In this document: positions 458 to 62,734 of the stretch, in pieces
Layout of the letters: the number at the start of each line of letters is the position of its first letter
Numbering within the stretch: the first letter of the stretch is position 1
Assembly (NCBI RefSeq): GCF_006345805.1
Contig: NC_043002.1
Span: forward strand, 83,638,001 to 83,702,000
Source: Octopus sinensis
Lineage: Eukaryota
Length of the DNA: 64,000 bases
Direction of reading: 5' to 3'
Program-made: the position numbers and the translations under genes
Notes under the pieces: generated by a model
What the model was told of the DNA's origin: nothing
The model's input: the letters and a program-made list of their open reading frames with translations, nothing else
Database searches by the model: none

Positions 458-1072
458 ATATACATACATACATACATACATACATACAGAAGTGGGCACC
501 ATTAATCGAAAAGTTAACTTCGTTAATCGTTAATTCATTAATTCTTTTAAAATGTAACGGAAGTTAGCGTTAATCTGTCAACGTTAACTTTTATTGAAAA
601 AAGGCACATCTACAGTTTAATACCCCATCGAATTTGTTGCCTCATAACTTCCAGAGAAATGGATACTTTTTAACAAAACTTTCACTAAACAATCGCTTAT
701 ATTCTGTAGATTGAGTTAAGACTTTTGGAAAAAGATTTTCTGAGGGGTTGGGGAGAGGAGTTTCGGAAAATTCAGAAGACCCGACATTTTCCCCCCTCAC
801 AACTTTCTGGAAAATAGGTATTTTTTAATGAATTTTTATACAAATACCTTTCAAACGGTGTAGATTACGATTAAAAAGAAATTTGTAGGCAAAATTTTGG
901 GAAGGGGGCAGGGGTCTGGAAAACGGAGTCTCAGTTCAGACGGCTCACATAATTTGTAATTTCTCTGTTTTGAATTTTTTTTCACTTCCGCTACCCCCTC
1001 ACCATCCCAGTCGGGATCGATTTTGGCCATTTTTTTCACTACGCACTTAAGAAATATCTTTGGTTTAAAAAA

Positions 1073-1360
1073 GTCTCTATATATATAAACGGCAAAATAT
1101 GTGTGTGTGTGTGTGTGTGTGTGCATATCCTTTATACAAATCCACAATTTTTCAGTTAGAGGGCTCGCACTTTCTATGGTCATATAAAACCGTCCAAGGG
1201 TGGTTGTGAAGATCTTTTCATTTCCCCAGTTACCCCTGAAAGCCATTTAAAAAAATCGTTAAACCGACCCCTTATGTTTCAGGTAACAAAAGTCTTTAAT
1301 ACAAGGGACGTAATTCCAGGGAAATAACTCTTTAAAACTCTGCATTTCCCTCCCTTTGTT
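1073..1360 (+). mobile_element. Helitron-like 5' fragment with internal (TG)n
   Basis: Starts TCtctatatatataaacggcaaaat, nearly the same as the start of the complete element at 1474. The 3' end is not found. Confidence 0.5.
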
Positions 1361-1473
1361 ATGTATCACACCTCAATACTGTACCAGACCAATTTATCCA
1401 ATTTAGGACCGGAACTGTCCCGGATTTCTGGATATTCCAGTTTCCCAGAGAATTTCTAAACGTTTGCTTAAAA

Positions 1474-1772
1474 TCTCTATATCTATAAATGGCAAAATGT
1501 CTGTTTTTTGATTGGACGGAGATAATTTTACACCTGACAGTTGGATGCGCGTGCGCATTTGCAGACAGTCTGTATGACTGCACATTTTTGTGTTTTGCGA
1601 AGACGCGTTATCATGTGTTTTGGCTTTCAAACGTGCAAGCTTTTTTGATTTGAGAAATGCAGGGAATAATTAACGAGTTTGACCAAGTGATTGACAAGAG
1701 AGAGGGATTTTCATGAAAGACCAAATATGTTTGACTAGCACTAGACACGACAACGCCGGGTCATAATGCTAG
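1474..1772 (+). mobile_element. Short complete non-autonomous Helitron
   Basis: 5' TC (1474), 3' degenerate hairpin acacgacaacgccgggt plus CTAG (1769-1772). Inserted between A1473 and T1773 with no TSD. Confidence 0.7.
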
Positions 1773-1973
1773 TTGTTAATAATTTCAAAGAAAAATGTGT
1801 GATTTAAGGGAAATCTGGCTGTTTTTTCTAGCTCATACCAAAACCGCCCTCCTCGTTTCTTTCTCACTCACATATCTTTTGATATTTTTCAATATTTTTC
1901 TCCCTATAAACAAATTTTATGGAATGATGATGTCAAAATAACACACGTGTAGTCCTAATCGAGTGAGGCCGTG

Positions 1974-2017
<44 letters not shown>

Positions 2018-2362
2018 GTTTAAGAAAAAAAACACCTAAAAACATCTTTAATGTTCATATTAATCTGCCAAATGTAATGCTTATTTGTTCACGTTATTTT
2101 GAATTATTCAGGTTCAAGGGGCGTGTTCGCAATATTTGCTTGTAACTTCGTAAATTGTTTTACATACAGATCAGAAATTTTGTCAGTGGGTGATTTATAT
2201 ACCACTGGTTTATAGTTATGTAATTTTACCTGATCTTGCTGAGTAAATTTGACTTTTATGGGCAGATAAATTTAATTAACAGGGGTAAAAGCAATAACAT
2301 CATGGATAAACACACACACACACATATATATACATACATACATACATACATACATACATACA

Positions 2363-2424
<62 letters not shown>

Positions 2425-2428
<4 letters not shown>

Positions 2429-2639
2429 GAGTGCTGAAATGTTCCTTATTTTGGATAAAATATCGGAGGATCAGTTAATTATGATTTTATTCAACATATT
2501 CCCCTTTCAGATTCACACACTTATTGCAGTGGTCATTCAGTTTTTTAAACCCTGTAAAAAAAAAAACTCGTAATGTTAGGACTCCAACCAGGCCTTTCGC
2601 GTTACCCTTGAAACCAAGGACTTTTCAGCAGCCTCTTCG
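2425..2639. mobile_element. Tc1/mariner MITE
   Basis: Imperfect TIRs tgaggagtgctgaaatgttcc / ggacttttcagcagcctcttcg with TA on both sides. Confidence 0.6.
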
Positions 2640-3076
2640 TATATATTGCACGCATAATACGCATATAATTCAAAAACACCCTGCAACCGACGATAATCAA
2701 GAAAATAGAAATAGGTTTTAAAAATTCTACGAAACTAAAAGATCCAGTGGTCCTCGGCTCACTGGTTGGGAATGCCTACTGAACTATTTTGTAACTTCTC
2801 TTTAAATTGTGACTTGAAATCTGACAGAGATCAATCTTACCTTTCATCCTTCCAGGTCGATAGAATAACTATCTGACTAGTCAAATACCAGTGAGCAATA
2901 TAATCAACTTTGTCCTTGAATGCAGTGCCCCTGCTTGGTCACAGTATAACGGCTGAAACCGGTGAGAGACGGATAGAGTTTATTGTATAACATTTATTCC
3001 ATGGTTTACAATTGTTTCAACAACGTAAGGTGATGAATCACAGATCATGTCTATGGACGGACACACACACACACAC

Positions 3077-3142
<66 letters not shown>

Positions 3143-3808
3143 TTATCTATATGAACAGTTCGGAATTTAGTATATTTTTAAGCACAGTATAAGTCGAATA
3201 AAGATGTCAACAAGATTGTTTACAAGAATTGAACTATGTATCAATTATGTCATTCAATTACGTTAACCATCACTCTAAAACGTCCGACGTTTCCTCCCAC
3301 AAAATTTAACACAAATAACCAGCGACTGTTATTTAACCTCCATGTATATCATACAAAACGTTTTGATTGTTTTCAAGGGTGTTTAGCCTCCGGCAGGGTC
3401 GTCGTCCTGTTGGTAACACGCCCTAGTCTAACACTAGGTACCACCGTGCTAAATGAAACAATTCCAGCGTATAAATATAATATATTTATATCAAGTTTTG
3501 ACCCAAGGCCAGATTAATGTAATACATGATGCATTATAAAGAATTAAAACTTAATCACGTACGTGATTTTATATTTGTGTGAGTATATGCATACATACGT
3601 ACATACATACGTACATACATACATACGTACATACATACATATATATAATGTATTATAGTGTAATAATATAATAAATGTTTCTAACTTAGCCTCAAGGCTT
3701 AAATTTTATGAGAAGATTAGTCGATTAAATCTACCCCAGCTTTATTTTATCGAATCCGGAGGGACGAATGGTAAAGTTAAGCACGGCAGAATTTGAACTC
3801 AGAACGTA

Positions 3809-3868
<60 letters not shown>

Positions 3869-3882
3869 CATACATATATATA

Positions 3883-4075
3883 TGGTTGGCGATTTTTTTC
3901 CTCTGTCTTCCCTTCTCTGGATCTTTCCTTCTCCTATGTTTCCGACGAAGAGCTCCGCTCGAAACGTTAAACCCTCCTTCTTCCCTTCCTTCCTGAGCGT
4001 CCAATAATACTATATTTGTTCCACGTCCTCGCGTTGTTGTGTTTTCTCTTTTTGTTTTCATGTTTGGAGTAACTT
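3883..4075 (+). mobile_element. Short hammerhead-bearing repeat (Penelope-like pLTR-type), embedded in (TA)n
   Basis: Contains the hammerhead motif at 3938-3972. A degraded homolog lies at 21480-21615. Confidence 0.55.
3938..3972 (+). ncRNA. Minimal type I hammerhead ribozyme motif (U4C variant)
   Basis: GTTT-CCGACGA-A-GAGC-tcc-GCTC-GAAA-CG-T-T-AAAC. Stem I GTTT/AAAC, stem II GAGC/GCTC, palindromic stem III. Confidence 0.65.
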
Positions 4076-4800
4076 TATATATATATATATGAAAACGCGC
4101 GCGTTTACAAACACACACGCATATGTGTATGTGTGAAGGCTTTACTAATTTCTGACACAAAGAATCTCCTATTTTCTTCCACAAAATATAAAATAATATT
4201 TTATACAATAGCATGTACGAGGCTCCTGATGAATTTTTAAAAATCATTGTGTCGCCATAAAAGAAGACTTGAATGTTAACGCAAACCTGGCTCGACCAGT
4301 CAAATCGGTTGGTGTGTAAACCAAATGAACAGAAATCTTCCCGCAAATACTCTTGTCAGTCAAAACTTCCCGAAAAACTCCGTTGAGTTATTAAAAAAAA
4401 GCTAGCAAATTGAACCCCAGACAGAGCCATCTAGCAGTTCTCAGTAAGCCACGACACTCTGTTCCGTGAGATGCTCTATAACCTCTTCAACTTTGTTTAC
4501 TTAACATGCTTGTGCTGTGTTCGACAAGAAGTACTGACCTTGTATTGTAATGCTGAATCATGCACACATTATCTACATTCATAGTTCTCACACTTTCTGT
4601 CTTCAATAACTATGAACTACTTTCGTATCAAGCAAATTGTTTGCAGAAGACTTTCAACTTTTCTATCTGTTATCGCATGGAATCTGTTCTATTAGATCAA
4701 ATATTCGTATGCATGTAAATGCAACCGTTCTGGATTAGTAAAAAGATATATAAAAACTCAAATAAATATTCGTATGGTCATTCTTGCCTTCACATGCAGT

Positions 4801-5214
4801 GGATCTTTTCGGTTCGAACGGCAGTTTTTAACATAATTTCTAGGTAACTAAAAAATTTTAAACTTCGTATACTGGTAGAATGTGTTTATAAAACATCTTT
4901 TTCTCTTGGCTTTATTGAGAAAATTCTATAGTTTGTAAGATATTTGTTGCTTTTTCTTCAATTTCTGCAATTTCAACCAATCACTGACGTCCATTGAGGT
5001 AAAAACCATTCTGTGCCGTATGAATATGTCCCTCGTTTAAGAAACAGATTGGGTTTATTTACATTTGTGAAGAAAAAAAGGTACCTTTCCCCCACCCCTA
5101 ACCCTAACCCTAAAACAGATTGAAATGCAATAGATCGATACTAGGGTCATAATTATGGGTGACAATTTAATATGACACCGCTAGAAAAAACTGCCGTTCA
5201 AACCGAAAAGATCC
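4801..5214. mobile_element. GG-terminal MITE, copy 1 (Merlin-like)
   Basis: ~28-bp TIR ggatcttttcggttcgaacggcagtttt / aaaactgccgttcaaaccgaaaagatcc. Degenerate 8-bp TSD catgcagt/catgaagc. Internal CCCTAA repeats. Confidence 0.8.
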
Positions 5215-6469
5215 CATGAAGCTTACCTGATATTGTGTACAACCAACGACGAAATAATGACTAAGATCCACTAAATGTAAAACGATATTTCGGAAGAAAT
5301 TATTAGAACAGAGATTATCTCGCAAGATACCACCATGTTGACAATAAAACTGCCAACGACAAAATAATCAAAATAACTAGATATTGTCAAAACTGTTTAT
5401 TTTGATTTGCAACATTGAGTCAAATACGTACATTGTAAAGGAAAGAACACTTGCTAAAACACTCCGATAGTACATAACTGGTTTATTTATTTTACTGAGG
5501 CATGAAAACAAGGCTGACGCCAGGGAGATTTGAATACGTCACATAGTGAACCGTAACTAAATAATGATAGATAACTCCTCTGCTGGTTCTAAGAATACTT
5601 GTTATAACGATGGATGTTAGAATATTTTGTGTACTGGACAAGATACTCTGGAATGTTTAGCTTAATACCACTACTTGTTTCTAGGGGTGTTTTCAGTGGG
5701 ATTCATTGCAATCCAGTCTTCCCTCACCCCGCTAGCATTCTCTGGTTGCTTAAGTGCTTTGTCCTTGCTCCTGTAGCTAGGCCATTAAAAAAACTGAAAA
5801 TGTTACACCCGTTCCTGCTTTGATTTCAAATCTTGAGGGAATCGGCTTTGAATTTCATCCAGAGGTTGATAAAAAAAATAATAAAAGTATCCTGAGTCTG
5901 TTTTGATCGACTGATTTCTCTCTGACATTGTGTGAACTTGTACCATTGTTGATTGTTATTCTTAGTCGTTTGAGTGGTCGCAAAATGAGTCTCTTGATGT
6001 GATGGTCAGCTAAGCTAAATGTAATATTATAAGTCTACCAATAACACTGATCATTTGCACTCTGTTCATAGAGTGCTGTTGTGGTTTAAGCCTAGGTCGA
6101 TCCTATCCCAGCAAACTTATGACCAAAGGTATTCTAGCCCTCTCTATTTCGTCTTTTTATGTGGTTATCCGAGACTATACTGCCCAGTGTATCTTTCTTT
6201 ATTCGAAAGGATAAGATGTCATTTGAGGTAAGTCGTGATGCTATTTCAAACAGGTCAAGCGACTACATAGAGACTCCTCTCACGGTCACCATTGTGTTTT
6301 AGCTAAAAGGAAAATTAAGAAATTAGTACCAAGACGCTTCGTAGGATTATGGGTTACCATTGATAGGATTTCGTATCCAGTCAAACGACTATATCAAAAG
6401 ACTAAGATGCATCTTGTTACTTAGAGCGTTTGTCTATGTTGCTTGATTTTCCAAGTTGGATCCTGTATG

Positions 6470-6660
6470 TCATGTTCTCTTGTCTAAGTATCCAGCTTGG
6501 GTGACGGCTCATGTTGGTTGATCACATATTACATGGTCACGGCACATGAGTATTTCGCAGAGATGGGAACTGAGTGGGACACTACTAGGAAGGTTGCTCG
6601 GGACGACCCGTGTAAATACCGACAAATGGCGGATGCAGTGACGCGCTGCAACCTGACCTG
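6470..6660 (+). mobile_element. Decayed 3' end of an RTE-type LINE
   Basis: The translation EYFAEMGTEWDTTRKVARDDPCKYRQMADAVTRC resembles RTE C-termini and ends in the short tandem tail acctgacctg. Confidence 0.4.
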
Positions 6661-7316
6661 GTATCTCCGGAGAAATATGGCAAAAGCTTGTTTCTGAATT
6701 TTACAATTTCCATCTATTAGCAGCAAAGATGTATCGGCGCGAGGCCTTTGGGTTAAGGATGTTCGGCTCGTGCTCATAAAGTCATGAATTCATTTCCTGG
6801 ACCAAATAGCACGTTGTTTCCTTGAGCAAGACACTTCATTTTACTTTGCTCTCGTCAACTCAAAAGGAATACCTGCCAACTGCTGGGGTAGCCTTTCTTC
6901 CAGCTGTCACGTCCTCCATGTTCCATTGTGCCGTTGTGTCCAGGGTAATAGGGGTGGTGGAAGACAACCATAAGCATAAAGACAAACATCCACATATGTA
7001 TACAACGGGTTTCCACACAGTTTCTATCAACCAAATTTACTCACAAGGCTTTGATCGGCCCGATATTATAGCAGAAGACTCCAGGTGTACTGAACCCGAA
7101 ACCATGTGGTTAAGAAGCAAACTTCTTAACACACGGCCACACCTGCTGCACCTGTTTTGTCGTAGGCAGTTTTATTGTCAACATGGGCGTATCTTACGAA
7201 TTAATCTCTTTTCTAATGATTTCTTCTGAAACATTGTCCTACTTTAAACGGATCTTAGACATTAATTCGTCGTTTATTTCAAAAAATAAATTACTCATAT
7301 AGGGTAAAGGATACAA

Positions 7317-7635
7317 ACCTCCTTCGGTCATGAATGGCCATGGGATTGCCCCTAGAAAGTTACCCTCCGAGGCACAAATCCGCGTAAGGTTGTTTATGGA
7401 AGACCAACAATCACCCATGCATACCAGCCTCCCCTCTCCACCGATGTCATCCAAGGGAAAGGCTGATACAGCTTGGCAGTGATGCTGCTACTCATTTCTA
7501 CAGCTGTGTGAATTGGAGCAACATAAAATAATGTGTCTTGCTCAAGAACACAATACATAGCGCAGTCCGGGAATCGAACTCACAACTTCATGACTGTGAG
7601 TCCGACGCTCTAACTACTGAGCCATGCGCCTTCAC
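7317..7635 (-). mobile_element. tRNA-derived SINE family C (CORE-like centre)
   Basis: Head gtgaaggcgcatggctcagtagttagagcgtcgg with A box and B box (gttcgattccc), then tgtgttcttgagcaagacac. Homologs at 26618-26955, 62416-62734 and 20628-20820. Confidence 0.8.
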
Positions 7636-8500: not shown

Positions 8501-9424
8501 ATGCTCAGGTGTTCTACCAACAAAAACAACCACTGTCATCGAATTAGCGAATTACGCAGACACGTATGCCCACAATGTGGTTTTTAGGCCAAACCTGCAT
8601 GACACAGCGTGACAAGACTTGTTCCTTGAATCACATGTATAACTATCCAACAGGCTTCTCTTCCACACCGTTGCCGTCTGTTTAATTGTTCTCACATAGT
8701 ATAAGCCAACCAGAAGTTAATAAATAACACTTACGCAAGAAGGCACACAGCAGAATTGAAACTAGGGCCTCATGTTTTGTGGAGCGAGCTTCTTAACCAT
8801 TCGGCCATATTATTTAGAAGTATTTGTGTATGATGCGAAAAAATCGACTCAAAACCTCATGGACAAAATTGAGAGGCGGGTAGCATTATATTCGAGTGTG
8901 AGAAAAAATAGATTGGATAAAATATACTTCTGATTTTTAGCTACAAAAATAGGGATCACTTTATATTTGAGATTTCATTGCATTATACTCGAGTAAATAC
9001 GGCAACTAGAAACGAATTCAAATTATATGAAACATTTCTGTTAACCAAGGTTCACAACCCCGAAGCTTCCGGCTCGATCTCAGCGTGCGGCGCCTTGGAT
9101 TAGTGTCTTCGACCATTGCCGTAGATCTACTGCAAAAATCAGGAGTCTTATAATTGGAATTTGATCGACAAAAACTACGTAAAGAATAAAATATGTGCGT
9201 CGGACAAAAATATATTCTAGTTGTGTATCTTTACACCTAAAGCAGCTTGGTATTTCATCTCTTTCTTGCAGGATGCGTGATACCACCGACTAGATCTCCA
9301 TGAAGGTGGTGCTCCTGCATGGCTGTTGACTGAAAGCAGTAAAGGAAACAAAAAGGAATCCAGTGGACTAGTAAAACAGAGGTAAACATACTAGGGATTT
9401 TCTATTTAGAAAAACGGAAAGTGG

Positions 9425-10300
9425 ATCAGTGCAGCAGTGGATCATGGACTGGCAACTCAAGCTGGCTGTGGACAAATGTACCACCATGCATTTTGGGAGG
9501 AGAAACCCAGCGTCCACCTACTCCCTCCACAACACTGATCTCAAAAAGTCTTCATGTGAACGTGACCTGGGTGTTATTGTCGACAGTGATTTGCGTTGGA
9601 CAAAACACATCGCTAAAATTGTCAAGAAGGCTGAGGGTGTCTTGGCATCACTCACCAAATCCTTTGTGAGCCGCTCTCCGGCTATCTATCTGCGGCTTTA
9701 TATAGCTATGGTAAGACCTCACCTGGAATTTGCATCACCGGTCTGGAATCCCTATCTTGCCCAGGATATCAATCTTCTGGAAGCTGTTCAGCGACGCGCA
9801 ACCAAAGAATACCCTCCATCAGGCATTTGCCATATCCTGAACGCCTTACTTCCCTGGGCATGGACACATTGAAACTCCGACGTCTGGCAGCTGACTTGGC
9901 AGACACCCATAAAATTATCAACCATCGTACAAACAATAACTCTGAGCACCTTTTCAAACTCCACCCATCTAACACCCGTGGACATATTTACAAAGTAAGA
10001 AAACAGCACAGCTCCCATGACTTCAGGAAACATTTCTTCACGCTGAGAGTTGCTGAAACATGGAACAAACTGCCGGCATCAGTTGTTAGTTGTCGGAGTA
10101 CTGCATCCTTCAAAACTTCCATGCTTCCTGAGATTCGCCAACACTACACTTGATTTTCTCCCTTCCATACACACGCAAGCATGTATCTGACTCATACATT
10201 GTTCGCTTTCCAGACATTTCTACATTACTGCATGTACTTTATATGCACTTTCTGACAAGTTGTGGTGCACCTGAGCACTGTATACAATAATTTCATTATA
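9425..10300 (+). mobile_element. 5'-truncated CR1-clade LINE (C-terminal RT region and 3' UTR)
   Basis: ORFs 9429-9808 and 9808-10153 give W..WQL.L...KC..MHFG, ERDLGVIVD, VRPHLEFASPVWNP, LEAVQRRATK, YPERL..LG..TL..RR, RGH, FF..RV...WN.LP. One frameshift in an A-run at ~9805. The 3' UTR ends in an ATT/ATAT tail. Confidence 0.93.
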
Positions 10301-13968: not shown

Positions 13969-14705
13969 CAGTTAATACGTGGGCGATGGCATCACTTCAG
14001 TATGGAGTGGCAATTATAAAATGCCAAAAAGAGAAATGATGAAAATGGATACCAAGACCAGAAAAATGTTGACAGTACACGGAGCCTTCCACCCTAAGAG
14101 TGACACCGATAGGCTGTACTTGCCCATAAGAAAGAATGGGAGAGATTTGATCAGTTGCCAGGACTGTATCGAAGCAGAGGAAAGAAGTTTAGGTGGTATG
14201 TAAAAAATGCCGTGGAGCCATTGTTGAAACATGCGAAGGCCGGCTTTTTCAAAACTGAAAATTGTGTAATGAAAGAAAAATTTAAACAAGAAATGAACAC
14301 AAGAAAAGTAAAAGCATAGAAGGAAAAAAAAGTATTGTCAGTTTGCAAGAGATGTGAACGCGAAGACAGATACAGAGAACTGGTGGTTATGGATGAGAAG
14401 GAGTGGCCTGAAGATAAAGACAGAAGCACTCATATGCGCAGCTCTAGAACAAGCGTTAAAGACCAACTATGTGAAGTGCAGAATAGACAACACTACCGAC
14501 AGTGACAAATGCAGAAATTGTGGTGAGAGGGGTGAAACGGTATGGAACATCGTTAACGAGTGCCCGAAATTGGCACAGCGCGAATATAAAAGACGCCGTG
14601 ATAATGTGGAAAGAATGATCCATTGGAAGCTCTGTGGAAATCACGGCATTCAAAGAGCAAAGACGTGGTATGAGAAAATCCCAGAATGAGTCACCATGAA
14701 TGTTG
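13969..14705 (+). pseudogene. R4/Dong-clade RLE non-LTR retrotransposon fragment
   Basis: MDTKTRKMLTVHGAFHPKSDTDRLYLP..GR.L, LK..TEALICAALEQAL.TN, zinc knuckle CRNCGERGETVWNIVNEC, then YKRRRDNV.R.IHW.LC...WYE.IPE. Contains stops and frameshifts. The 3' end is replaced by a SINE. Confidence 0.85.
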
Positions 14706-26617: not shown

Positions 26618-26955
26618 GACCCCCTTCGGTCACGACACTGACCATGGGATTGCACCTAGAAAGTTACCCTCCAAGTCACAAGTCTGGACGAGGTGGTTTA
26701 TGGAAGACCAGCAGTCGCCCATGCATACCGGCCTCCCCTCTCCACGCCACCAGTGTTATCCAAGGGAAAGGCATAGGGGCCGATAAAGCTTGGCACCAGT
26801 GACGTCGCAACTCATTTCTACAGCTGAGTTAACTGGAGCAACGTGAAATAAAGTGTCTTGCTCAAGAACACAATACGCAACCAGGTCCGGGATTCGAGCT
26901 CACAACCTCACGATCGTAAGCTCGACGCTCTAACCACTGAGCCATGCGCCTTCAC
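26618..26955 (-). mobile_element. SINE family C, full-length
   Basis: Homologous to 7317-7635 and 62416-62734. Confidence 0.85.
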
Positions 26956-33439: not shown

Positions 33440-33775
33440 GTAACTAAAGTGGTACTCCGTCGGTTACGACGACAAGGGTTCCAATTGATCCGATCAACTG
33501 AACAGTCTGCTCGTGAAATTAATGTGCAAGTGGCTGAGCACTCCACAGATATGTGTACCCTTAACGTAGTTCTCAAGGACATTCAAGCGTGACATTCAAG
33601 AGTGTGACAAGGTTGGCCCTTTGAAATACAGGTACTACTCATTTTTGCCAGCTGAGTGGACTGCAGCAACGTGAATTAAAGTGTTTTGCTCAAGGACACA
33701 ACACATCGCCGGGAATTGAATTCACAACCTTATGATCGTGAGCCCACACTCTAACCACTAAGCCACACGCTTTCA
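33440..33775 (-). mobile_element. SINE with family-C-like head and type 2 tail
   Basis: Head gtgtggcttagtggttagag...tgtgtccttgagcaaaacac. Tail shared with 20820-20940 and 22930-23100. Confidence 0.75.
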
Positions 33776-34102
33776 AAGACCTTGTTAATTTCAAAGACCC
33801 AGTTAATTCTTTGAAACGTTATTTTTCACTTGGTAGGGCCTATGGAACCGCGACCATTACAGGAATGATCAAAAGGCGAACAATTAAAAAACAACGCAGA
33901 GGTTTCAGAGAAAGCATCGAGATAGTTCTGGCCAAAAAGACCATGACGTCTGAGGTTCAGTAGAAAGCCATCAGGACACGGACCTAGACTTAATCAACCC
34001 AGATCTGGCCGTCTGGCTGAGGATGTGTGTTTCTTATGTCCCGCATTATGACAACGTATCTCGTCTTTGCGGGACTGCCTGAACAACATACCTCGCTGAC
34101 TG

Positions 34103-34551
34103 TATTTCTTTATTGCCTATAAGGACACACAGAGAGGGGACGAACAAGAACAGACAAGAAAGCACAAGTGGGGACAAAAAACATAAACGGATGAATGAAA
34201 TGAAATTATATAAAAATGAAGATGTAATGGCTACTACTCGACCCCACATCCGAGTAGTACCATTTTAACTATATTTTTACACTACTTTTAATCCAGCGTT
34301 TATCTGAATAATTATCTTAGTAAATGCAAAGCGGTTTCAGTTTTTCAAATTCCACCACAGGTGGCAACTGGTCGTATCTTATTTCTAACCCTAATGGGTT
34401 TACTTCGTCTCCAAAGTTTGCTTTCAATTTTTCATAGTTTTTCATGTCAATTAAAATGCATTCCATACCTGGGACTCTTATGTTTTTCCTCTAATTACTG
34501 CCTTCATCTTCCCTATTTTTGCTTCGATGGCTGCATTCGTCCAATAGTTAC
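34103..34551 (-). mobile_element. 5'-truncated ORF1-only L1/Tx1-like element (copy B)
   Basis: Minus-strand translation ...YWTNAAIEAKIGKMKAV...NYEKLKANFGDEVNPLGLEIRYDQLPPVVEFEKLKPLCIY* (stop 34317-34319), homologous to copy A. 3' end caataaagaaata. Flanked by atacctcgctgactg at 34088-34102 and 34552-34566. Confidence 0.75.
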
Positions 34552-34878
34552 ATACCTCGCTGACTGTAATTCTTTATTTTGGCACCTAGGCCATAACATA
34601 GAGGGTACAGCACAAGGACAGAGAGAACACCACAATGGGGACAAAAACATAAAACGAATGAAAAATGAAAGATGTATTAAAATAATAAAATTGATGATGA
34701 TGAAATGGCTGCATTGAGCCCAACTCTTATGCAGTACCATTTAACAGTTAAATTATACAAATTAACAAATCTTTCTTACACACTCTTTTTTTCTTTTAGC
34801 ATCGTTTTTTTTTTTTAATTTTGAAAGCCTATTTTTTTTTCTCTCAATTTTTATAAAATTTTACTTACTTTACTCTTT

Positions 34879-36560
34879 TTAACAGTTCAGTAAGCGTTTC
34901 AAATCTTCATACTCCACGACCGATGGTAATTCGTCGAATTCAATTTCGACCCCTAAATGGTCTATACTACTTCCGAACAGTTCTCTTAGTTTCTCGTATC
35001 TCTCCTTGTCAACTTGCTTTCTTCTGTTTATTTCTCCTGTGGCAGCCTTAATCATATGATTGATTTAAACTTCGTGATCTTCCGCTCGATTGCCGCACTT
35101 CTAGCATATGTACTTACTTACTAGTACTTGTAGCTACATTCACCCTGGGCGGGTTGAGTCGGCTTCTTCTACTCATGGAAGAAGTTTCGTGGGAATATGT
35201 GAATTTCACAAGCGGTCCCCAACAATCCCGCATGTGGAGACATCCTGTTTGCCGCAGATTGCCCGCTGACGCAGGGACAGAACGACCGAGGAGCCGCCGG
35301 TTGCCGAAGCAGACACTCCGAGGATTTTCACCTGAGCCCCGCCTGCCGGGTTGTGGCCCTAATACCACTCGGTGTCAGACCAATCCGCCTTGGGTGGCCC
35401 TACCAGGAACCGAAGTTCCCGACGTCATAGCTCTGACACGTCTAGCATATGTAACCATATGCCACTTGTTTTTTCTCTTTTTAACCAACGTTTGCTTCAA
35501 CGACGGACCTGGGATGTCCGAGCGAGTCTTTTCACTTGGCTCCTCTCTTGGTGTGCCAAAATAAACGTCAATGTCTAAGCCTTCCATACGTGTTGCAATG
35601 ATGTTTCTTGCTGCCACTCTACCTTCCATTGTTGATTCTGCTGGTGTCTCGAACCTGTTCCTCTTCTCCTCCATCTCAATCTCCTTCATCCTTTTCTGGC
35701 TCTCTGGTGGAGAACTCGCCAGTTCTTTCCTTTTCCTCCTATTCACGACGGTGAATGATTCCTCCATCTTTCTCCTTTTCCCGCACTACCACTTCGGTAC
35801 TCCGTTCTTCACTTTTCTGCTCCTTCTCTTCGTTTTCTTTCTGGGGCATCTTGCTTTCATGTACCCCTTTTGACCACTTAAGAAACATGTTAGTGGCCTT
35901 CCTTCCACTACTACTCTTAGTCTAACGTCTTCCGGGAGAATGATCTCCTCTGTGGTCTCGTACAAATCTTTTAGGCTCGCTGGCCATACCTCCATCAATT
36001 AACCTTTTTGGTTCTCGTAATCTTTAAGATTTTTACTTCATCCTCCATTCTGTGCATGACTGCTGCCACCAGCTATGCTTCCTTAATCTCGGTGGATACT
36101 CTGCCGATTCTCACTCTGGCGATGCGTTTGCCAGAGTAAGTTAGCAGAAGTACCCATTCTGGTGTCCTTATCAGCACAGTGGAGTAGTTTATTTCGTCTT
36201 CTTCGTTGCTAAACCTTACTTCCACTGTGCCGTACTTCCTTCCACGTGTATAAAATGTCGTAAGCCTCTTTACGTCCTTGAGGCACTCCTCTATTGCCTC
36301 TATTGGGGCAACCACTATCTTTTTAGAGGACGTAGATAGCGTTCTGTACACCACTGTCCCCTTTACCACATTGTTAATCAATTCTTGAGTCAGCCTCAAA
36401 CTGGCTTTCTATCAATTTACTGCCCTCCTTCCACTTTCTGGGCTCTATCTTAATTTCTCTTACTTCCAGGGCGTTGGTAGATACTCCTTTAATCGTGGCT
36501 GATGCGTAACTTCCAGCTGGTTCATTTTCCATCTCTCCTCTCTTCTCCACTTCACCCATA
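34879..36560 (-). pseudogene. Disrupted gag-like/ORF1 protein (~440 aa reconstructed)
   Basis: Fragments 36374-36577 (GSYASAT), 36073-36399, 35786-35998 (LRVVVEGRPLTCFLSGQKGYMKARCP, a decayed CCHC knuckle), 35454-35767 (basic/acidic linker) and 34879-35112 (YARSAAIERKI...RYEKLRELFGSSIDHLGVEIEFDELPSVVEYEDLKRLLNC*). Confidence 0.7.
35113..35440 (-). mobile_element. Non-autonomous RTE-derived insertion
   Basis: 13-bp TSD tctagcatatgta (35100-35112, 35441-35453). RTE-like 5'-UTR motif agagctatgacgtcgggaac..cctggtagggccaccca and an agtaagtaag tail. Confidence 0.7.
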
Positions 36561-37362
36561 ATTGGGGAAGAAAACAAATATCAAAACAGGCAAAAACAGC
36601 AACAATAGTTCAAAATTTAACAAATTTAACAGATCTTAGGTTCACCCACACGGGGAGACCTTCAATAAGTATAACAAGCAAACGACTTACTCAGAATCAC
36701 AAGTGATTTAACCAAAAATACTACCAACGCGAAAAAGAAAATACCTCGCTGACTGACATTACTGACTGACACAGTCTTACCTGGGGACGTCCGCCGCAAC
36801 AATATTGTAAGGTGTGAAGCATCCAGTGACATGAGATACAACACTGATATCGATACATGTATGCAGAAGTTTTTTTGTGTTTCTCAGTACAGACGAGTCC
36901 CCTCATGTTGTAACATACTTGCAATTCACCCCTGATGCTAATAAGTTACTCTATTGTCCCAACTCTTGTCGTAGAGATTCTTTTTTGTGTTTGCAATAGT
37001 TATATACTTCAGATGAAGGTGGAGTGTCAAACACCATAACTCTAATTTTTCTATACTTTAAAATCAATAACATGGAGTGGCTGGTGTTAGGAAGGGCATC
37101 CAACTGTAGAAACCATGTCAAATCAGGCTGGAACCTGGTGCAGCTCTCCGGCTTATCAGCTCCAGTCAAAATGCAAAGTGGTATAAACGCAAGCGTGGCT
37201 GTGTGGTGAGAAACTTGCTTCCCAACCACATGCTTCAATGTTCAGTATCACTACATAGCATCTTGGGCAAGTGTCTTCTACTTGAGCATGGAATTGGTAG
37301 ACAGAAACTGAAAGAACTTGTATATATATATATATATATATTGATTGATTCTAGTTTCAGTA

Positions 37363-38248: not shown

Positions 38249-38348
38249 NNNNNNNNNNNNNNNNNNNNNNNNNNNNNNNNNNNNNNNNNNNNNNNNNNNN
38301 NNNNNNNNNNNNNNNNNNNNNNNNNNNNNNNNNNNNNNNNNNNNNNNN
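38249..38348. other. Assembly gap (100 N)
   Basis: A run of exactly 100 N. Contiguity across it is not guaranteed. Confidence 0.99.
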
Positions 38349-49699: not shown

Positions 49700-50410
49700 A
49701 TTCAAACTGGTCGTGACAGAAGTAACATTACTTGTTATGTATATATGTATGTCTCTTCTATTTTTTAATTATTATAAATCTTCCACTGAGAAACACAGAC
49801 AAATTCACATTTGGAACTTGAGAAAAGTTTTGCATATTTTTAATGTTCCACTCACAGATTGCACTTGTAATGTACAAATTAGCTGGTCAATTTCTCTTTC
49901 TGAAAATCCCAGTTTATCTACATTCTCCTTTAAGCATTTGCAAACAAAAGCTACTGCTCCAATTATTATTGGTATGAATATGAATTCATAGTCTGGATAT
50001 AGAAGCTGGAGGTTTTGAGGCAGTTGTCTATAGACATCCTCCTTTTCTTTGTTTTTCAAAGAGATATCTATATCTAACTTCTGTGATGGTACATACCTTT
50101 GCCCCTCTATCCCAAACAACAATATCCGGCTTGTTATGCTTACATTTAACAAAAGTTTTGATGGGAATATTCCACCAGTATTCCTTGAGTTTATGGATGT
50201 ATTCCATAATAGAGGGATTTTCTAAGTTGATTTCAGGACAGTCTTTTTTCGCGGATGGCATTGTAAATTGTTTTAGCAACAACCTTGTGCCGCATAGGGA
50301 GGTAGTAACGTGATGACATTTTAGGACAGCTGCTAATCACATGCGTGATGTCTTCTCAGAAACATGACATGGCCTACACATGCGGTTGCACTTTAGATTA
50401 CAAGAGCGTC
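49700..50410 (-). pseudogene. 3' fragment of an RLE-encoding non-LTR retrotransposon (R4/Dong-like)
   Basis: CRPC...DITHVISSCPKMSSRYYLPMRHKVVAK (CCHC plus RH motif), HNKPDIVVWD...TEV (PD..E nuclease), KE..Y..L, IPIIIGAV. Stop at 49805. Frameshifted. Confidence 0.82.
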
Positions 50411-60893: not shown

Positions 60894-61239
60894 CATAATA
60901 ATAATAATAATAATATAATATAATAATAATAATTAATAATAATAATCTCATCATCATCATCATCATCATCTTTGAAAGGAATTTATAAATATTTTAATGC
61001 ATCACTACCCGCGTTTCTACAACTCACATGTTTCTTATGATCATAGTCCGTATTTCTGGCATGATTACAGTACAGTGCGTAGTATCAGGTACATCATGTT
61101 CATGCATTTATCGCTTCGGGCGATATGGCATTAACGGATATTTATATGAGCGTCTTTATCAAAACACACACACCACACACCACACACACACGCACGCATG
61201 TATATAGCTGTTGGTTTGTTTATCATTATTATATAATAT

Positions 61240-62415: not shown

Positions 62416-62734
62416 TTTTTCGGAGACCCCCCCTTCGGTCAGGAATGACCATGTGATTGCACATAGAAAGTTACCCTCCGAGGCACAAGTCCGGGCAAGG
62501 TTGTTTTGTGGAAGGCCAGCAGTTGCCCATGCATACCAGGCTTCCCTCTCCACACCACTGATGTTATCCAAGGGAAAGGCAAAAGGCAACTCATTTCTAC
62601 AGCTGAGTTAACTGGAGCAACGTGAATTAAAGTGTCTTGTTCAAGAACACGACACGCAGCCTGGTCCGGGAATCGAACTCACAACCTCACGATCGTATGT
62701 TCGACGCTCTAACCACTGAGCCATGCGCCTTCAC
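62416..62734 (-). mobile_element. SINE family C with TSD
   Basis: Homologous to 26618-26955. atctagga is duplicated at both ends. Confidence 0.85.

Follow-up and report, generated by a model that had tools for sequence, protein, structure and literature searches.

A 64-kb stretch of the Octopus sinensis genome (the window, to which all positions below refer) carries on its minus strand two adjoining retroelement copies, A and B, which very probably represent an ORF1-only, protein-coding, non-autonomous non-LTR family. Taken as a whole, the data are likely explained by a decayed, multi-copy ORF1-only retroelement whose ORF2 functions were borrowed, likely from a sequence-specific cutter. The two copies share one insertion point, which was missed in the sequence-only reading that we followed up and is new in the present analysis.

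Structure of the two copies

Copy A is flanked by identical 15-mers at 36741-36755 and 34552-34566, and the 1,833 bp left between them once a nested insert is taken out agree with the ~1.83 kb of the sequence-only reading. Its ORF runs from an ATG at 36559 through a SYASA motif to a stop at 34881-34879; the short 5' UTR (181 nt) and single ORF (~446 codons, against ~440 residues) described earlier are present, but the frame is not open in this copy, being interrupted by in-frame stops and by three or more frameshifts (one reading gives five). Two of the four ligands of the CCHC knuckle, which had been called decayed, are indeed changed (35887-35846), and the first residues of the C-terminal domain lie at ~35441-35465, ahead of the nested insert. 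The 3' UTR, formerly put at ~310 bp, measures 312 nt and contains the expected AATAAA. The Pfam scan took in the 148 longest of the 197 non-repetitive frames of the window; in the element frames tested it gave no match to a reverse transcriptase or endonuclease family, as the sequence-only reading held, and the window pieces of the ORF, including the C-terminal block, matched no Pfam family. No LTR or TIR was found at the mapped ends, where the longest terminal match beyond the 15-bp duplication was a 25-bp A-rich one (84%).

Public contigs from four of the 24 listed runs (among them X1, X5 and X9) were aligned to 33770-37040 at 80% likeness, and the best-supported rows of each table were used. 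Three of the listed pieces of other copies (X1 record 6, X9 record 26, X5 record 19) end at 36740-36741, which confirms the 5' boundary of copy A. One contig spanning 36556-36874 came from a run guessed to be RNA and was kept out of the evidence. A 100-N assembly gap lies 1.5 kb from copy A, at 38249-38348.

The insert nested in copy A is a very high-copy repeat, with a bin depth of 1.8-4.2 x 10^5 in X1 and a high depth also in the run guessed to be RNA, and another copy of the element skips 341 bp here (joint 35103-35445, runs X1 and X5). Other copies of the insert extend beyond 35439, with ~36 extra letters near 35170, so that the one in copy A is 5'-truncated. It ends in a short TAAG-type repeat, presumably shares a motif with RTE 5' UTRs, and is probably an RTE-dependent SINE-like element.

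Copy B lies directly behind copy A, and the minus-strand order from 36755 to 34086 is 15-mer, copy A, 15-mer plus two bases, copy B, 17-mer. It retains the C-terminal domain, a stop at 34319-34317 and a 214-nt 3' UTR with AATAAA at 34114-34109, so the layout from ORF end to tail is the same in both copies, and the 3' tails are 77.5% identical over 138 bp. Both copies end 6 nt past the AATAAA with no run of A. Lying 34 kb and 27 kb from the two ends of the window, the pair is embedded in ordinary sequence and is not part of a telomeric array.

Features of the A/B locus (window positions)
Feature	Position	Strand	Remark
Target-site duplication of copy A, 5' copy, 15 bp	36741..36755	-	sequence
Copy A, full length	34567..36740	-	1,833 bp without nested insert
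Copy A 5' UTR, 181 nt	36560..36740	-
Copy A ORF1-like gene, ~446 codons net	34879..36559	-	broken by stops, frameshifts and insert
Two tandem RRM-like domains	35900..36360	-	approximate limits, mapped from P0014 model residues 63-225
Single CCHC knuckle, decayed in copy A	35846..35887	-	sequence
Nested insert, very high-copy repeat	35113..35440	-	13-bp duplication at 35100-35112 and 35441-35453
C-terminal domain, ~85 residues	34882..35117	-	predicted small alpha/beta fold, low confidence
Copy A 3' UTR, 312 nt	34567..34878	-	AATAAA at 34578-34573, no poly(A) tail
Middle target copy	34550..34566	-	serves copy A as 3' duplication (15 bp) and copy B as 5' duplication (17 bp)
Copy B, 5'-truncated	34103..34549	-	3'-terminal 447 bp of a diverged relative
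Target duplication of copy B, 3' copy, 17 bp	34086..34102	-
Predicted ~100-nt hairpin	33993..34102	-	insertion point at its 5' foot; -40.5 kcal/mol

The predicted protein and the ORF1-only family

The first relative of the ORF to be found was an Octopus bimaculoides protein with 65% identity over 72 residues. A phmmer search with the O. bimaculoides relative against 1.84 billion representatives gave 66 proteins, and a search with the C-terminal domain added three. All 21 relatives that were looked up form single-member clusters at 90% identity, and the 15 with names are all from Octopus (11 O. bimaculoides, 2 O. sinensis, 2 O. vulgaris). Identity to the first domain of copy A ranges from 24 to 69% (median 39%, 52 matches); the relatives are mostly fragments, and no intact natural ORF was seen. 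A profile search with the 39-row alignment returned only two proteins and is uninformative on the range outside Octopus, and scans of JGI metagenomes by protein and by junction pattern returned nothing. Fragments of this ORF are annotated as uncharacterised Octopus proteins, some of them fused into host gene models. Mixtures of the ORF with other sequence were seen in P0001, P0002, P0003, P0032 and P0063; P0003 joins it to WD40 repeats and P0002 to a MIB/HERC2 domain, while P0001 has the N-terminal module in duplicate, a hint that a further locus also holds tandem copies.

An AlphaFold model was made of the relative P0014 with the 39-row alignment, and its N-terminal half is confident (pLDDT mostly above 84 across residues 31-220). 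The top Foldseek rows for this model are all tandem-RRM proteins (IMP3 RRM1-2 at E 8.5e-5, HuR, Sxl), and VIA separated RRM/ferredoxin-type folds at residues 63-142 and 143-225, with a best Z of 7.9 (rmsd 2.3, 79 aligned) that calls for caution because this fold is common. No ORF1 of known structure appeared among the matches of the fold or PDB sequence searches. The intact knuckle pattern is present in 7 of 69 relatives and two or more knuckles in none, Pfam zf-CCHC was matched by 6 of the 39 aligned relatives, and the Atlas neighbours of the protein, taken as leads only, carry zf-CCHC, ZCCHC3-type RNA-binding domains or DUF4283. The RRM plus CCHC architecture that had been expected from such a model is therefore what P0014 is predicted to have. 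Type I ORF1 proteins are defined by one or more RRMs placed immediately before a CCHC knuckle (PMC4120745), and the ORF1 of this element, with two modelled RRM folds and one knuckle, is of type I on the strength of the model.

The C-terminal domain occurs in one predicted protein with the N-terminal modules in P0067, P0014 and P0023, and weakly in P0039, from which it follows that the domain belongs to ORF1 rather than to the end of an ORF2; its profile was matched by 11 of the 69 relatives. Folded alone, it gave a weak model of a small alpha/beta fold (pLDDT 59, one of five) with no Foldseek match at E 0.001. The best VIA score (Z 7.2, rmsd 3.6, 66 aligned) was to a carboxypeptidase pro-domain and acyltransferase subdomains, which represent a common small alpha/beta arrangement. 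The domain proposed as novel by the sequence-only reading is thus shared by A and B and free of any Pfam family, but a novel fold is unsupported, and a third RRM was likewise not borne out.

That the two copies belong to a larger family is suggested by the contigs. In X1 the flanks have a summed contig depth of 43-46, the bins of the copy A body 488-4,197 and the tail bins 4,223-6,676, values that differ from copy number and are taken only to mean many related loci. The 3' end stands moderately higher, perhaps because the tail is better conserved, and 71 and 75 X1 contigs differ from copy A at two positions of the tail. Joints between A-type and B-type tails point to intermediate subfamilies, and the mobility of the unit is reflected in the 15- and 17-bp duplications, the truncation of copy B, the shared 5' boundary and the many contigs. 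In X1 record 1, 34578-35112 is covered in one piece, from C-terminal domain to tail. X1 record 2 and X5 record 17 carry 34859-35111 and 35614-35846 (X5 also 35982-36092) within ~1 kb, that is, the second RRM/CCHC region followed by a linker that has diverged and by the C-terminal domain up to the stop, and X5 record 16 also counts as a contig of another locus without ORF2. Because these X1 and X5 contigs leave no room for an ORF2 between the ORF and the tail, other loci share the ORF1-only layout. A separate depth spike in the bin 34100-34209 (85,000-94,000 in X1 and X5, with point depths inside it of about 2,000-3,400) probably comes from a short stretch that matches a microsatellite or some high-copy repeat; a reading of it as the tail of a partner element was rejected, as point depths are only 1,900-3,100 in X1.

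Over the 59 alignable codons of A and B, protein identity is 53%, with pN 0.30 and pS 0.74 (Fisher p 1.8e-6), pN/pS 0.41 (bootstrap 0.25-0.63) and identity by codon position of 0.64/0.71/0.46. Here pS is saturated and selection is read on the natural A/B pair, not a consensus; the codon blocks were picked by local protein alignment, which favours a low pN, while decay after insertion acts oppositely. As far as sequence comparison goes, this shows a coding sequence kept under purifying selection while its synonymous sites became saturated. Since the stop-to-tail layout behind the C-terminal domain is the same in both copies, their common ancestor was most simply already without ORF2. These values, together with the same layout at other loci, uphold the earlier proposals that copy B keeps amino-acid similarity within a common layout and that the lineage is non-autonomous, protein-coding and under purifying selection. 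The proposal that it is long-lived fits the saturated synonymous sites, within the limit of one pair of copies.

Other origins of such a unit can be weighed on the same data. A domesticated host gene (ZCCHC3- or L1TD1-like) from whose mRNA LINE machinery had made many retrocopies would also leave units with one ORF, UTRs and an AATAAA, would fit the purifying selection equally well and could account for the ZCCHC3-type domains among the Atlas neighbours. However, the 21 single-member clusters in 21 show no orthologue conserved among the three Octopus species, the relatives vary widely in identity and are mostly fragments, and a tail that stays conserved at saturated synonymous divergence, with no poly(A), behaves as a cis signal would; we consider this origin very unlikely. 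It is still harder to see copy A as a one-off internal deletion of a two-ORF LINE, with the C-terminal block as the end of ORF2 and B as an ordinary truncated LINE. Copy B alone, with only that block and the tail, and the absence of a Pfam family for the block would allow this, but the block sits with the RRM/CCHC part in one protein in three independent relatives, none of the seven matches among longer proteins (150-2000 aa, a search of limited sensitivity) exceeds 404 aa, and contigs of other loci show the same junction, so that the deletion is largely refuted and highly improbable. A remnant of an LTR-element gag, to which the CCHC knuckle might point, deserves hardly any credence: the mapped ends carry none of the flanking LTRs that the sequence-only reading had associated with it, the predicted fold is a tandem RRM and not a capsid, and a 5'-truncated copy keeps an intact tail. 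The ORF1-only family is therefore the reading with which we proceed.

A shared insertion point at the foot of a predicted hairpin

Within the 64-kb window the 15-mer matches exactly three times, each time at an A/B junction; allowing up to three mismatches adds one further match, which is at chance level. The 3' junctions of A and B fall on the same base of one 15-17-bp sequence, and for two copies so divergent a single junction base is not expected from random insertion. The length of the duplication varies (15 versus 17 bp) at a constant 3' junction, a combination that fits target-primed insertion with a fixed first nick.

The insertion point lies at the 5' foot of a predicted hairpin, which no shuffle matched in strength (z -4.46, 0 of 200) but which is not unique in the window, ranking about second to fourth, in a tie, among 145 GC-matched 110-nt windows. 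Rfam searches with the region, the hairpin alone and the window gave no above-threshold match at the target, and the target motifs had no match in three of the four supplementary files of an octopus miRNA paper (PMC9699675), so that the hairpin may still be a miRNA. Judged by eye, the hairpin did not conform to the rules for an H/ACA RNA, a SECIS element or a hammerhead. Short related repeats at 33709-33775, 7567-7634, 26887-26954 and 62666-62733 (79% over 68 bp) are likely SINE heads, and two of the four equal the target hairpin in predicted folding strength. Just upstream of the insertion point, 36755-36790 (-) holds two GTCAGTCAG units and a splice-donor-like motif, and the target sequence itself contains a donor-like motif.

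Traces of the same target were found at other loci. At position 34088, within the 15-mer, 11, 5 and 2 contigs of X1, X5 and X9 carry a letter unlike both window copies (depth 615 of 658 in X1), and from these contigs it appears that other loci carry the 15-mer behind the tail. One X5 contig runs from half of the hairpin (to 34052) through 37 diverged letters, ~60% alike by eye, into the target and an A-type tail (from 34551), and by its sequence this joint is a paralogue of the target that received an insertion at that very base.

It seems to us somewhat favoured that insertion was directed by sequence, and the main challenge to this comes from the same ORF1-only family without a real target, the 15-17-mer then belonging, in some members, to the 3' end of the element itself, or else marking a junction of A into which B landed by local homology. 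In line with such a reading, which is also what speaks against targeting, four listed pieces of other copies stop at 34578 or 36740-36741 and do not run into the 15-mer at the 3' or 5' end of A; these are junction pieces among the matches listed, beside 1,339 further loose-end rows. The flanks, moreover, are near single-copy at 80% identity, unlike a young multicopy target, and the target has no Rfam match. On the other hand, the 15-mer also stands exactly at the 5' boundary of A, where the alignments of other copies end, and it takes part in the pairing of a hairpin that extends into the low-copy flank. The second locus, with its diverged half of the hairpin and an insertion at the same base, and a bin upstream of A at 1.9-2.9 times flank depth in three runs (to which overhanging element contigs may add) likewise argue for a host target, and we hold the target-free reading to be rather unlikely. 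Sequence-directed insertion may nevertheless be partial, given the four pieces that do not align into the 15-mer; in the literature, the same flank in more than 20% of copies has served as the criterion for a target preference, according to the part consulted of PMC4494074.

Possible mechanism, partner and comparison with known elements

According to the ORF1-only reading, the element is likely transcribed, and its ORF1 protein would coat its own RNA through the two RRMs and the knuckle; with its charged linker and C-terminal domain it could co-assemble with the proteins of a partner, by analogy with HeT-A, HAL1 and Ag-Sponge. The ORF2 protein of the partner would then recognise the conserved 3' tail and copy the RNA by target-primed reverse transcription. 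A first-strand nick at a fixed base would give the constant 3' junction and a variable second nick the 15 versus 17 bp, early stops would leave 5'-truncated copies such as B, and a target rebuilt at each insertion would allow copies to stack in tandem.

For the partner, the weakest step, the L1-Tx1 group is the best candidate, at about even chances, because its target preference is passed to passengers, an RRM/CCHC ORF1 suits it and it was recently active in O. vulgaris. In the parts of the sources consulted, O. vulgaris has recently active L1-Tx1 elements (13 families, 421 insertions; PMC13282606), many Tx1 elements prefer a target and pass this preference to passengers (PMC4494074), and the Tx1 clade is said to accommodate RRM/CCHC variants of ORF1 (PMC5203782). 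Possible alternatives from the list in PMC13282606 are Dong-R4, CR1 and further LINEs. A bolder version, which we consider unlikely, would be an old octopus lineage that has been without ORF2 up to synonymous saturation, has a three-domain RNA-binding ORF1 plus the C-terminal domain, and is site-specific at one base of an undescribed hairpin-forming, possibly RNA-coding host family; its ORF2 partner may lack a working ORF1, and the two would make up a two-component retroelement.

LINE fragments occur elsewhere in the window. A frameshifted 3' end of a LINE ORF2 at 9343-10153 (+), without a Pfam match at E 0.01, is presumably CR1-like by its motifs, and fragments of the C-terminal part of a reverse transcriptase at 14312-14686 (+) and 49808-50336 (-) are ones that we take to be R4/Dong-like, the former with a weak zf-RVT match (E 0.0022). 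A weak EGF-like Pfam match at 60998-61204 (+), below the cut-off (E 0.0013), is possibly a host exon or chance.

The octopus family is real and apparently undescribed, although it may stand in Repbase, Dfam or octopus repeat libraries as LINE/Unknown: no description of it was found in the literature searched, including octopus and cephalopod repeat papers (PMC13282606 text and supplement, PMC12988792, PMC8967140), just as the sequence-only reading did not recognise it. ORF1-only LINE derivatives are rare, the review part consulted listing three, HeT-A, HAL1 and Ag-Sponge, which are named as ORF1-present non-autonomous LINEs whose ORF1 proteins are suggested to multimerise with those of the partner (Kojima 2018, PMC5786205). 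Why such elements keep their protein under selection is an open question, and a diverse octopus family offers many natural copies with which to test whether ORF1p acts in cis on its own RNA or is handed over to a partner. Should the fixed insertion point be true, the family would in addition point to a site-specific endonuclease and to a family of unannotated hairpins in the octopus.

By comparison with known elements, the label HAL1-like given by the sequence-only reading holds for the mode of working but probably not for descent, in view of the type I ORF1 and the missing poly(A) tail. L1 carries a poly(A) tail, whereas the octopus element has none and has a shared insertion point. HAL1 is a non-autonomous LINE derivative encoding only ORF1p (PMC5753468), as in the octopus, but it derives from L1, and the ORF1 of mammalian L1 is of type II, with a coiled coil, one RRM and a CTD (PMC4120745, in part), in contrast to two RRM folds and a CCHC knuckle. 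The HeT-A-type telomeric lineages of Drosophila, which can persist and diversify as ORF1-only elements (PMC13534243, in part), resemble the octopus element in their CCHC-type ORF1, their need for the ORF2 of another family and their tandem copies; they differ as telomeric members of the Jockey clade with three knuckles (PMC4120745), whereas the octopus element has one knuckle, an extra C-terminal domain and a 3' UTR that is short, and it lies at an internal site between target-site duplications. Ag-Sponge of the mosquito, compared by description only, is of the same ORF1-present non-autonomous kind but of CR1 origin. The tandem insertions and the probable fixed insertion point in a host repeat recall Tx1, Keno, Kibi, Koshi, Tx1-Mar and the passenger SINEU; these, in the part of PMC4494074 consulted, are autonomous elements or non-coding passengers and target U2, microsatellites or DNA transposons, while the octopus target has no Rfam family. 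The traits that set the octopus variant apart are the extra C-terminal domain on a type I ORF1 and, probably, a fixed target.
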